A DNA stretch of 64,000 nucleotides from an uncultured Verrucomicrobiae bacterium (lineage in GTDB: Bacteria; Verrucomicrobiota; Verrucomicrobiia; Chthoniobacterales; UBA10450). Positions 8,741 to 28,625 of this stretch are shown piece by piece. Position 1 is the stretch's first letter; each line of letters opens with the position of its first letter. The stretch covers positions 512,001 through 576,000 of the forward strand of contig CAWFGO010000002.1 in NCBI GenBank assembly GCA_963815455.1, in the 5' to 3' direction. Under the pieces are notes generated by a model that was not told the DNA's origin, searched no databases, and saw nothing but the letters and a program-made list of their open reading frames with translations. The position numbers and the translations under genes were made by a program.

Positions 8741-9202
8741 ATGATCAAGGGACGACCTCCCCGGCTTGATCAAATTTATCAATCTTACGATCCGCCGCTG
8801 TTTTTCGTGACGATGGGAACGTTGCATCGCCGCAGGATCGCGAAACTGGGCAAAGCGCATGCTGCGTTTCGCAAGTATGCCCAACGCGCTATCGAATTCA
8901 ATGTGGCTGTCGGCCGATACGTGATCATGCCAGATCATGTTCATTTTTTCGTCCAGGGTAATCAGAGTTTCGAGCTGACCAAGTGGGTAAACGGATTGAA
9001 ACGCACAATCTCGGTGGCGTTGGGCGCGACCAGCGACCGCCCGCTCTGGCAACCCGGCTTCTTCGATCATCTCTTGCGCAACGATGAGAGCTACGCACAA
9101 AAGTGGGACTACATTCGTGAAAATCCGATGCGGGCCGGCCTCGTGCAATCCGTGGATGAGTGGCCTTATCAAGGCGAGATCGTCCTGATCGATCGCGCCT
9201 AA
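8741..9202 (+). mobile_element. REP-associated tyrosine transposase (RAYT, Y1 HUH family)
   Basis: FFVT, YVIMPDHVH (HUH) and WQPGFFDHLLR...YIRENPMRAGLV motifs; flanked by REPs on both sides. Confidence 0.9.
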
Positions 9203-26329: not shown

Positions 26330-26368
26330 CGTGCTGAGGCTACCGGAACAGCTCTCACAACGCAAATC

Positions 26369-26454
26369 TGTAGCGGCGGTCTCCGACCGCCGTTCTCCTC
26401 GCCTCTCTGCGCCAGCGCCACAACCCTGCTGTAGCCGCGGGCGCCGACCGCGGC
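26369..26454 (+). repeat. Two GTAG REP units upstream of parB
   Basis: TGTAGCGGCGGTCTCCGACCGCCG and TGTAGCCGCGGGCGCCGACCGCGGC. Confidence 0.65.
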
Positions 26455-26550
26455 CTCTTGGTTCAAATCCGTAATCGCTGACCAGCCTTCGCTCGCGACA
26501 GCATGGCAGGCACCTTCCTCACCCGGAATCCCCCTACCAAATCCGCCAAC

Positions 26551-26580
26551 AAAAAAGCGGAGACTTCTCTCCGCTTTTTT
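26551..26580. terminator. Bidirectional Rho-independent terminator, copy 1
   Basis: AAAAAAGCGGAGA-CTTC-TCTCCGCTTTTTT. Confidence 0.85.
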
Positions 26581-26685
26581 GGTAAAGAAACGCTTCGGTT
26601 CGAATGTGCTTTCACCATCAACTCTCAACTCTCAACGGCTTCTGAGTCCGCCTGGCGAATAGGGAAACGGTCTGCATTATCTAAC
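26571..26685 (-). CRISPR. Candidate orphan mini-array: 38-nt repeat (26648-26685), ~39-nt spacer-like segment (26609-26647), degenerate repeat (26571-26608)
   Basis: Minus strand GTTAGATAATGCAGACCGTTTCCCTATTCGCCAGGCGG; the downstream unit keeps CGTTTC-N12-GCGG spacing; second partial copy at 27381-27407; cas4 relics nearby. Confidence 0.4.
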
Positions 26686-26700
26686 TTTGTCGCAAATGCG

Positions 26701-26927
26701 CTATAGCCTCTCCCAATCTTCAAGGTTGATTTTGCGTTCGATGATTTCTTCAACCTGCCGCACCAGCATTCGGACTTGAGGCACTGAGTATTCGGTGTTG
26801 GTGGGGATCGTCTGACGGTTTGAGCCCAATGTCATGAACTGATGGCGCGTGCCGGAATATGGGCCATCAAAGCAGCGCGCGAAGTTTACGGATAAAATCG
26901 CGACTTAAGTGGGCGCCAGCCGGCCAT
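26701..26927 (-). pseudogene. hicA: HicA-family toxin, frameshifted
   Basis: MAGWRPLK / RDFIRKLRAL / FDGPYSGTRHQFM...TIP...QVRMLVRQVEEI..., split across frames by two small deletions. Confidence 0.75.
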
Positions 26928-27168
26928 TCTTCACCTTGTTCAGATCAATACCGGCAATGACCGGCAGCTTATGACCGAGCCTCAGGCCAACCAGAATCCA
27001 ATCTTCCAAAGTCGAGCGCAATTCGTTTTCGCATTCCCGAAGTGACTTTGCGAAAGCAATTATCCCTTTGAGCTTTGGAATTTCTCCGGAGAAAGAGCCG
27101 TCTTCCAGCTTGTCGTAGCGCGCCAGTCCGAGCGCGGCTTCGAGGTAGGCAGTTAGCGGAAACGCCAT
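26905..27168 (-). CDS. hicB: HicB-family antitoxin
   Basis: LTAYLEAAL...YDKLEDGSFSGEIPKLKGIIAFAKSLRECENELRSTLEDWILVGL. Confidence 0.85.
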   Translation of the reverse strand: MAFPLTAYLEAALGLARYDKLEDGSFSGEIPKLKGIIAFAKSLRECENELRSTLEDWILVGLRLGHKLPVIAGIDLNKVKNGRLAPT

Positions 27169-27310
27169 GTCAACAGAATAGGCCACTCAATTACGGAAAC
27201 AAGCGCGTTCACAACGGCGCCCCCGGATTTGATTGAACCCGGAACCCTAAGCGACACGAATGGGCACGCCGCTGCGAGGTTCCTTTGCGCAGATGACCAA
27301 TTGCCCCAAC

Positions 27311-27407
27311 AAAAAAAGCGGAGACTTCTCTCCGCTTTTTCGGTAAGAAACGCTTTTGAACCGATGTATCTGACTAGCAGATAGGGAAACGGTCTGCGTT
27401 ATCTAAC
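27311..27407 (-). repeat. Second copy of the repeat-plus-terminator unit, without the spacer-like segment
   Basis: Terminator 27311-27340 nearly identical to 26551-26580; ATAGGGAAACGGTCTGCGTTATCTAAC (27381-27407) matches 26659-26685 at 26/27. Confidence 0.8.
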
Positions 27408-27436
27408 TCTTGAATCCCCCAATATGAATCGAATCT

Positions 27437-27516
27437 AACCCAAGCCGGCCTCGAAGCGCAGCCCCGAAAGCATTCGGGGTGCGCCGGTTGCACAACTTTA
27501 GCTATTGTCCATGGCT
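27437..27516 (+). pseudogene. Degenerate duplicate of the cas4 5' end
   Basis: AACCCAAGCCGG...CAGCC...GTGCGCCGGTTGCACAACTTTAGCTATTGTCC parallels 28008-28082 (VRRLHNFSYCP vs VRRLHNFIYCP); hairpin CCCCGAAAGCATTCGGGG at 27462-27479. Confidence 0.8.
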
Positions 27517-27523
27517 GGTTCGC

Positions 27524-27742
27524 CTACCGGAACTCTTCAACATCCAATCCACTTCCGCGCACAATGTTTTTCAATGTGCCGATCGGAATCGGTTTGCTGC
27601 CGTGCATCGGAACAATGACTTGCCGGCCATCTGGATGACGCCATTTCTGATGACTGCCGCGTTGGTCGAGGAAAACGAATTCGTGACGACGAAGAACGCG
27701 AACCACGTCGTGCGCGTTGCAGACGGGAAAACGTCGGCTCAC
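27524..27742 (-). CDS. hicA: HicA-family mRNA interferase toxin
   Basis: DQRGSHQKWRHPDGRQVIVPMH...IPIGTLKNI. Confidence 0.92.
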   Translation of the reverse strand: MSRRFPVCNAHDVVRVLRRHEFVFLDQRGSHQKWRHPDGRQVIVPMHGSKPIPIGTLKNIVRGSGLDVEEFR

Positions 27743-27942
27743 GGAAGAGCCACTTCCACCACCTTGGCTCCGTCGCGTAACTCAACCGGCGATGGTTCAA
27801 ACCACAGGGCCAGAGCTTCCTTCGCATTGGCGATGGCTTCATCTTCCGTATCGCCAGCGGAGCCGCAGCCGGGAAGCTCGGGGAAAACCGCTGACCAGCG
27901 TTCGGTCTCGGCATCGTGTTCCACTACCAGCCGGAATTTCAT
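27739..27942 (-). CDS. hicB: HicB-family antitoxin (short, no DNA-binding domain)
   Basis: MKFRLVVEHD...WSAVFPELPGCGSAGDTEDEAIANAKEALALWF; overlaps hicA by 4 bp. Confidence 0.92.
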   Translation of the reverse strand: MKFRLVVEHDAETERWSAVFPELPGCGSAGDTEDEAIANAKEALALWFEPSPVELRDGAKVVEVALP

Positions 27943-27987
27943 GAAGCACAGGATAACTCCATTCAAGGTGCCCGGCAATCTTCCTTT

Positions 27988-28518
27988 GTGAGCGACGCAC
28001 CGATTCAAACCCAAGCCGGGCTGGAAACGCAGCCGCTTATGCCGGTGCGCCGTTTGCACAACTTTATCTATTGCCCACGGCTCTTTTACTATCAGTGGGT
28101 CGAAAATATTTTTCAGGAGAACGCGGACACGATTGAGGGGTCGCACGTGCACCGGAATGTCGATGCGCCTTCGCGGTTGAGCGAAGAAAAAGCAAAGGCG
28201 CTCAACGAAAGTCTTCCTGAAGGCGCGACCCTGCGCAGTTTGCGTCTGCAAAGCGAATCGCTCGGGCTCATTGGCGTTGTCGATCTTATTGAAGGCGGGC
28301 CGGACGGCGCCGAGATTATTGATTACAAGAAAGGTTCCGCGCGTCGGAACAGCGACGGCGAACGCGTGGCGAAAGAGCCGGATGCGATTCAGGTCGCGAC
28401 GCACGCGTTGTTGTTGCGCGAGCATGGGCTGAGGCGGGAGGAAGCGGTGGCGAATCGGATCGATGCCAGCCGGCTCGCAGTCATCGCGATTTCAGAAAGG
28501 CTGAGGCGGGAGGGTTGA
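27988..28518 (+). pseudogene. cas4: Truncated CRISPR-associated Cas4 domain, resembling the N-terminus of Cas4-Cas1 fusions
   Basis: PVRRLHNFIYCPRLFYYQWVE...EGSHVH...GLIGVVDLIE...IIDYKKG...IQV..HALLLREHG; homology stops at ~28430 before the C-terminal Cys cluster. Confidence 0.85.
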
Positions 28519-28625
28519 TCGAGCGAATTCGGCGGAGCCGAATTCGGTTTAGAAATCAAGTTGTTGCATAGCCCGCTTATGCGCGACTCCTTGCGCAGAC
28601 TAATCCCGAGGATACGGTTTCGCTC

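Follow-up and report, generated by a model that had tools for sequence, protein, structure and literature searches.

Relic type II-C tracrRNA genes, type V-B remains and hicBA pairs in a CRISPR island of a Verrucomicrobiae genome

We analysed a 64,000-nucleotide stretch of contig CAWFGO010000002.1 (positions 512,001 to 576,000; hereafter the window) from an uncultured Verrucomicrobiae bacterium of the Chthoniobacterales. Its parB–mqnD interval is a 2.2-kb island carrying two minus-strand copies of a non-coding unit, two hicBA toxin–antitoxin pairs and remains of cas4. An earlier note on this DNA had taken the unit for an orphan repeat or mini-array of a type V-B CRISPR system, guiding or inhibiting a Cas12b. 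The locus is instead a defunct palimpsest left by two systems of class 2. By its sequence and predicted fold, the duplicated unit is almost certainly the gene for the trans-activating CRISPR RNA (tracrRNA, encoded by the tracr gene) of a type II-C Cas9. We think it probable that the island is a layered wreck: two damaged II-C tracr left arms remain, and a V-B system that likely replaced cas9 at its start codon was later deleted. In relatives, the same arm precedes cas9, cas12b, cas3 of type I-C, a scrap of type I-G cas3g or toxin–antitoxin genes. The leftover tracr gene is likely a fixed landing pad for the exchange of whole immune systems.

The duplicated unit and the II-C tracrRNA

In a DNA search of 61 relatives, G005, G048, G038 and G046 had the same unit on the strand opposite to cas9 and directly upstream of it, and all three of these neighbour proteins that were scanned scored above the cut-off of the Cas9 profile TIGR01865. 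The core motif of the unit occurred at 104 genome loci, mostly with Verrucomicrobiota titles, and a cas9 start lay within 500 nt on the opposite strand at 83 of them. The remaining 21 comprised seven chance hits without the rest of the element, nine loci that end within 200 nt and five orphan or other cases. We aligned 58 of the 65 cas9-adjacent copies extracted, keeping the window copies outside this training set. In the nested stems, 62 cells of the alignment had changed on both sides of a pair, compared with 11.6 after shuffling and at most 25 in slid controls. The covariance model, R1, gave 89.5 bits to window copy 2 and 49.2 bits to copy 1. An Rfam scan returned nothing near a gathering score, and no Rfam family matches the unit. 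The analysis also yielded a tracrRNA model, backed by covariation, for a Verrucomicrobiota Cas9 clade that is widespread, as well as a few unusual Cas12b loci.

The 38-nt sequence that had been called a V-B repeat is really the nexus and stem-loop region of this tracrRNA: it is identical at 36 of 38 positions to the tracr beside cas9 in G005, versus 15 of 38 for the real V-B repeat (repeats were taken from the fetched loci), a level matched by 303 of 1000 shuffles. Likewise, the supposed 39-nt spacer turned out to be a 38-nt insertion into a tracr stem-loop, containing a genome-wide heptamer repeat. With the unit assigned to II-C, its likeness to the V-B repeat at chance level and no cas12b found in the genome, the idea of a V-B mini-array acting on Cas12b had to be given up. 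The description of two minus-strand copies did hold, as they are 85% alike over a 40-nt block and 97% alike over the terminator block. No third copy was found in the host genome.

Relative to the II-C tracrRNA of the Verrucomicrobiota Cas9 clade, which we define here from the 58 cas9-adjacent copies, the window units have the same sequence, stems, terminator and orientation. The tracr fold with its nexus, stem-loops and covariation is present, and in copy 2 only two pairs of the R1 stems are missing. The window copies differ in that their anti-repeats are broken and that the start of cas12b or the end of a hicA follows them. For the 5' end of intact copies, predicted pairing energies with the II-C repeat are -22 to -27 kcal/mol, whereas the predicted duplexes of the window copies reach -10.6 to -13.9 kcal/mol (copy 2, -13.9, against -24 to -27 for intact tracrs). 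Judged from alignment and predicted pairing, both anti-repeats are damaged, and we regard the copies as relics because this pairing with the II-C repeat is lacking. Neither a cognate cas9 nor a II-C array was found in the locus or in the genome (90% complete, 7 contigs), and the genome search recovered no Cas1, Cas9 or Cas12b. A repeated-word search of the host genome gave no CRISPR array, and II-C, I-C and I-G repeats from relatives had no match there within 6 mismatches. The island is predicted to be immunologically dead, with no present CRISPR activity. Repeat-like insertions also occur in the same tracr stem-loop region as that of copy 1 at L048:15847-15910 and L184:780-845.

The type V-B remains and the systems behind the arm

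The earlier note was right that the island holds the relic of a V-B locus. It had placed this relic in the duplicated unit, while the actual remains lie elsewhere, on the plus strand. The truncated cas4 and the second, decayed cas4 5' piece were recognized correctly; the true array relic and the cas12b start (table 1) had both been overlooked. The Cas4 fragment is 87–88% identical to the Cas4/Cas1 fusion (Cas4/1) of G021 and 86% to that of G159, and covers positions 1-124 of profile NF049935. In a Cas4 tree of 18 rows with long branches, it groups with the V-B fusions, outside the I-G and I-C groups. The break in cas4 leads directly into a V-B repeat, of which the last 11 nt are left, and the array retains this partial repeat, one spacer and one full repeat. 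Its repeats match those of the G021 array, and the full repeat is 34/36 identical to the G159 repeat. The four codons left of cas12b match the cas12b starts of G021 and G159 and a scrap in G342, which has the same start with twelve codons left; their start-codon context is common to the cas9 of L189.

In its Cas4/1 N-terminus, repeat, gene order and strand, the relic resembles the V-B loci of G021 and G159. Unlike in those loci, there is a single spacer and the Cas1 domain, cas2, the V-B tracrRNA and all but the start of cas12b were not found at the relic. The 22-nt core of the spacer had no exact match among the viral contigs. The G021 locus itself (L021:7548-16522) is intact: its cas12b encodes a protein of 1438 aa, cas4/1 and cas2 are present and the array has about 30 repeats. 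No II-C arm lies upstream of it. At L027:11612-16834 (G043), a short N-terminal scrap resembling cas12b, in a different frame, stands before a Cas12b-like frame of 1688 aa.

A tracr match was present in 13 of 355 family genomes. The match in G378, a chance 21-nt hit inside a gene, was dropped, which leaves 12 genomes with the arm. What stands behind it is cas9 in three (G005, G211 and G224), V-B in three, cas3 in two, and toxin–antitoxin-like open reading frames (ORFs) or hsdR in four. The V-B cases are G000, G159, with a near-complete locus and only the terminator part of the arm, and G342, with the cas12b scrap and one V-B repeat. The cas3 cases are a near-complete I-C locus in G375 and, in G368, a cas3 scrap with I-G-type repeats matching the array repeat of G009. 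Other cargo consists of a HEPN–nucleotidyltransferase pair (G330), a nucleotidyltransferase ORF (G014), small ORFs (G062) and the end of hsdR (G289). Twelve metagenome contigs, retrieved by a terminator pattern, carried cas9 (3), an intact tracr at the contig end (1), a Cas9d-like gene (1), cas3 (1), a cas3g scrap (3), a V-B repeat (2) or the contig end (1) behind the arm. The cas3g scrap has a weak profile match and is 45–53% identical to the I-G cas3 N-termini of three relatives.

Depending on the assembly, cas9, cas3g, cas3 or cas12b comes after the arm at the rmlD site, which makes four states at one place; at the rpsB site it is cas9 or a Cas9d-like gene. The start codon of the new gene is kept at the junction with cas12b (G000, G342 and G159), cas3 (G375 and G368) and cas3g (L187 group), and cas9 and cas12b share a short identity at the gene start. 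No cas9 was found in G159 or G375, where near-complete V-B and I-C systems stand behind the arm. When 151 family genomes were searched with the model under strict filters, only intact-like copies came up, in three genomes, and a pattern search for further arm sites gave no new site. The arm with a Cas9d-like gene in L184 was first counted as a swap and is now considered ambiguous, because G547 has an intact tracr of the same family in front of a similar protein. The Cas9d-like proteins behind a modelled II-C tracr, in L307 (G547) and L184 (NF049971 match), may reflect a shared tracr or another effector swap.

Each hicBA pair of the window has a direct duplication of CRISPR DNA at its flanks and is oriented into a tracr terminator, and both pairs now likely end their transcripts there. 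In G159, a cas4 5' duplicate flanks a PIN toxin–antitoxin pair just as the window duplicate flanks its pair. Over 663 nt, the window block of hicA1, hicB1, spacer and terminator shares 86% identity with metagenome contig L184 at the rpsB site, which argues that arm and cargo travel together between sites.

Proposed promoter capture and its alternatives

In the family loci, cas9 starts only 6–9 nt beyond the anti-repeat, and the distal hairpin is predicted to fold as a terminator on both strands. For this reason, the cas promoter should lie inside the approximately 90 bp of tracr DNA. We propose a promoter-capture mechanism, which we consider somewhat likely. The arm would carry the operon promoter together with the two-way terminator. 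An incoming operon would recombine at the cas9 start, inherit the promoter, be expressed and be retained, and the anti-repeat, useless after the swap, would decay. Later deletions at short homologies, which often would end in a repeat, may then have removed the V-B system, one from the cas12b start to the cas4/1 start and another from cas4 codon 146 to the repeat. Each HicBA pair may have arrived with a piece of a related CRISPR locus, giving the direct duplications (of tracr and of the cas4 5' end) on both sides. The activity of what we take to be repetitive extragenic palindromic (REP) elements and their REP-associated tyrosine transposases (RAYT) offers a possible lead as to how the arm reached new sites. 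A bolder version, which we regard as tentative and rather doubtful, is that in this family the Cas9 tracr gene has been exapted as an integrase-free platform for expression of about 120 bp, combining promoter and two-way terminator. Such a platform, possibly mobilized by REP/RAYT, would travel from one housekeeping locus to another (parB, rmlD, rpsB, trpA, ku and others), with whole systems of both classes (II-C, V-B, I-C and I-G) and toxin–antitoxin cassettes swapped in at the start codon.

Several observations weigh against promoter capture. A consensus scan found no promoter; the long terminator hairpins escaped it as well. As it stands, the promoter argument does not extend to G159 and G342, since they keep only the terminator end of the arm, and the conservation of the terminator among the metagenome contigs is partly selected because the search pattern was built on it. 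Only two of 19 non-Cas9, Cas4-bearing loci from 18 family relatives, some of them on short contigs, carry the arm, so most family systems do without it. Outside the family, cas9 stands behind 38 of 44 model hits, and Cas12b, Cas3 or Cas4/1 behind none. Many sites come from near-identical strains (L183/189/192, L187/190/191 and L186/188), and G368 and G375 share one junction. The independent events are therefore few, perhaps five to eight by our estimate. In G159 cas12b is split and in G375 cas8c, so either system may be inactive or contain errors of assembly. Finally, the cas12b start of the window is only 14 nt long, so its assignment rests on comparison.

Plain decay at a hot spot would need no captured promoter: defence genes accumulate at the same sites, and the tracr end is spared since its terminator serves the neighbours. 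The terminator is indeed the best-kept part in G159, G342, G330 and G289, it stands behind trpA, hsdR or toxin genes oriented into it, and the promoter scan was negative. We nevertheless hold this account to be fairly unlikely, as the new gene's start codon is retained at or near the cas9 position in six effector junctions, which represent four or five independent configurations, and random deletions in kilobase loci would rarely preserve start codons in this way. Nearly full tracr bodies (45–85 bits) before cas3 and cas3g also argue against it. An assembly chimera of related strains, which would explain the duplications, is very improbable: the assembly is incomplete, in seven contigs, but the copies differ by 10–25% and by specific insertions, and the same junction types recur in other genomes and contigs. 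Among sequencing runs, none containing the stretch came up: no RNA run was listed for it, and a DNA run with a small share yielded only contigs of relatives.

It is also improbable that the relic RNAs still act, as 3' ends of the hicBA transcripts, by binding either an incoming Cas9 (as a decoy or natural single guide) or HicAB. Each copy is located downstream of a same-strand hicBA pair, the stems of copy 2 are almost entirely kept, and the 9 nt before copy 1 could, by eye, mimic the lower stem of the repeat with 6 pairs. Precedents exist in the available parts of two sources, which describe tracr-L and viral single-guide RNAs (10.64898/2026.06.01.729453) and a CRISPR RNA that binds HicAB in a Cas13a–HicAB system (PMC13448076). 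However, the genome search gave no Cas9, both anti-repeats are broken, the mimic stem is not in the predicted minimum-energy fold and hicA1 is frameshifted. Among viral contigs, moreover, none of 44 core-motif matches had tracr context or cas genes, and none was a real tracrRNA. Compared with tracr-L and the viral guides as given there, the window RNA is likewise derived from a tracr and located away from an intact cas9 locus. It differs in being chromosomal, with no phage or anti-CRISPR context seen, no predicted guide–repeat stem and no Cas9 found.

We give hardly any credence to a solitary V-B repeat–spacer unit guiding or inhibiting Cas12b in trans. The V-B relic is 1.7 kb away and the 38-mer shares its last few bases with the V-B repeat, but the unit's identity to tracrRNA and its model scores already refute this reading, no cas12b was found and the supposed spacer is an insertion of a genome-wide repeat. 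For the true V-B spacer, the island showed no seed match accompanied by a TTN motif; the longest island matches are 9 nt for this spacer and 7 nt for the relic 1 insertion, and no effector was found. Standalone repeats, mini-arrays and CreTA are covered in the available part of 10.1101/2023.03.03.530964, and the island resembles them in having a repeat-related RNA gene beside toxin–antitoxin genes in a CRISPR locus. In contrast to CreTA as presented there, the window element is the anti-repeat RNA of another system, without a guide at the toxin promoter or a cognate effector; a spacer partly complementary to a toxin or cas promoter, together with an effector, was not found in the island.

In situ exchange of CRISPR–Cas effector modules around fixed adaptation genes, an array or cas6 has been described (Koonin and Makarova 2019, PMC6452270). 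The accessible part of that account likewise has systems of one subtype or type giving way to another at a single locus. Here, however, the exchange crosses class 1 and class 2 and takes in the effector, the adaptation genes and the array, and what stays fixed is a non-coding RNA gene that belonged to the lost system. The literature searched gave no account in which a relic tracrRNA forms the fixed part of swaps between classes, nor one of this tracr sequence; subscription papers and bioRxiv supplements may hold cases. Type switching is usually inferred from gene trees, whereas here the junctions survive at base level, with a non-coding relic marking the spot where Cas9 gave way to Cas12b, Cas3 or toxin cassettes. 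Promoter capture makes the testable claim that an incoming immune system would be expressed via the resident's promoter inside the tracr gene. The case also calls for caution, as repeat-like elements near cas12 or cas3 can be fossils of other systems and not regulatory mini-arrays.

Features of the island and its surroundings

The features of the island are listed in table 1. Judged by comparison with relatives, the island is an insertion: at 12 mqnD loci (the unpublished G003 left out of this count), parB lies about 100 bp from mqnD in nine, a 570-bp insert without cas genes separates them in one, and parB is absent within 1.5 kb in two. None of our claims depends on unpublished genomes. No intact cas12b–cas4/1–cas2 locus, which the earlier note had suggested looking for in this interval, was found at any of the 12.

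Table 1. Annotated features of the parB–mqnD island (window positions).
Feature	Position	Strand	Remarks
Two GTAG-headed REP-like hairpins	26368..26455	+	left island edge, just upstream of parB start; ~35 near-copies each in genome
tracrRNA relic 1 (II-C)	26549..26691	-	lower anti-repeat stem kept, upper stem lost
Relic 1 two-way terminator hairpin	26551-26579	both	predicted to fold on both strands, ~-21 kcal/mol
Insertion in relic 1 stem-loop	26609-26646	-	38 nt; heptamer repeat with 35 near-copies in genome
hicA, pair 1	26701..26927	-	frameshifted in this assembly; stop 9 nt before tracr relic 1
hicB-like antitoxin, pair 1 (UPF0150)	26905..27168	-	PF21748, E 5.6e-26
tracrRNA relic 2 (II-C)	27310..27421	-	nearly full length; 4-nt deletion in lower anti-repeat stem
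Relic 2 terminator	27312-27340	-	
cas12b first codons (MNRI)	27424..27437	+	at cas9 start position of intact loci
Decayed cas4/1 5'-end duplicate	27433..27516	+	repeat families D5, D9; alignment; joined to cas12b start
Genome-wide hairpin inside cas4/1 duplicate	27461-27479	+	copies elsewhere in genome
hicA, pair 2	27524..27742	-	open frame; PF07927, E 3.7e-17
hicB, pair 2	27739..27942	-	open frame; PF15919, E 1.2e-11
V-B Cas4/Cas1 fusion, N-terminal 146 codons	27988..28426	+	cut by deletion ending inside V-B repeat
V-B array relic	28427..28509	+	last 11 nt of repeat 28427-28437; 36-nt spacer 28438-28473; full repeat 28474-28509
Right-end hairpin	28515..28552	+	after V-B array relic; single copy in host genome

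The two hicBA pairs are unrelated, as had been noted. Pair 2 has adjacent hicB and hicA in open frames. In pair 1, hicA has two 2-nt deletions relative to the intact homologue in L184 (PF07927, E 5e-4), and the same two indels were seen against a relative's contig. The same pattern of duplication-flanked cargo was observed at L037:34-1551 (G330), where a duplicated trpA 3' end flanks the HEPN–nucleotidyltransferase pair. The V-B locus of G159 (L049:4495-14070) has a split cas12b, an ORF6N gene, the PIN toxin–antitoxin pair in the cas4 5' duplication, 6 repeats and hicAB after the array; a V-B anti-repeat is located between cas2 and the array.

REP-like hairpins stand at the left island edge only. 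Of the 2747 TGTAG sites in the genome, 235 precede a hairpin, against 20–33 for four control motifs, and we presumed the GTAG-headed hairpins to be REP, with REP/RAYT naming to match. The 3.6 Mb genome has 16 Y1_Tnp (HUH) matches (in the window, at 8870-9085) alongside about 230 TGTAG-headed hairpins. The right-end hairpin element was also seen 3' of V-B repeats in G342, L186 and L188 and of I-G repeats in G368. A tracr-terminator-like sequence (E 0.074) lies 3' of a type I-C array, in the direction of the array, at L258:4393-4440 (G362). Outside the family, orphan tracrRNAs in L066, L122, L144 and L304 are followed by short scrap and an array, by other genes and cas1, or directly by an array.

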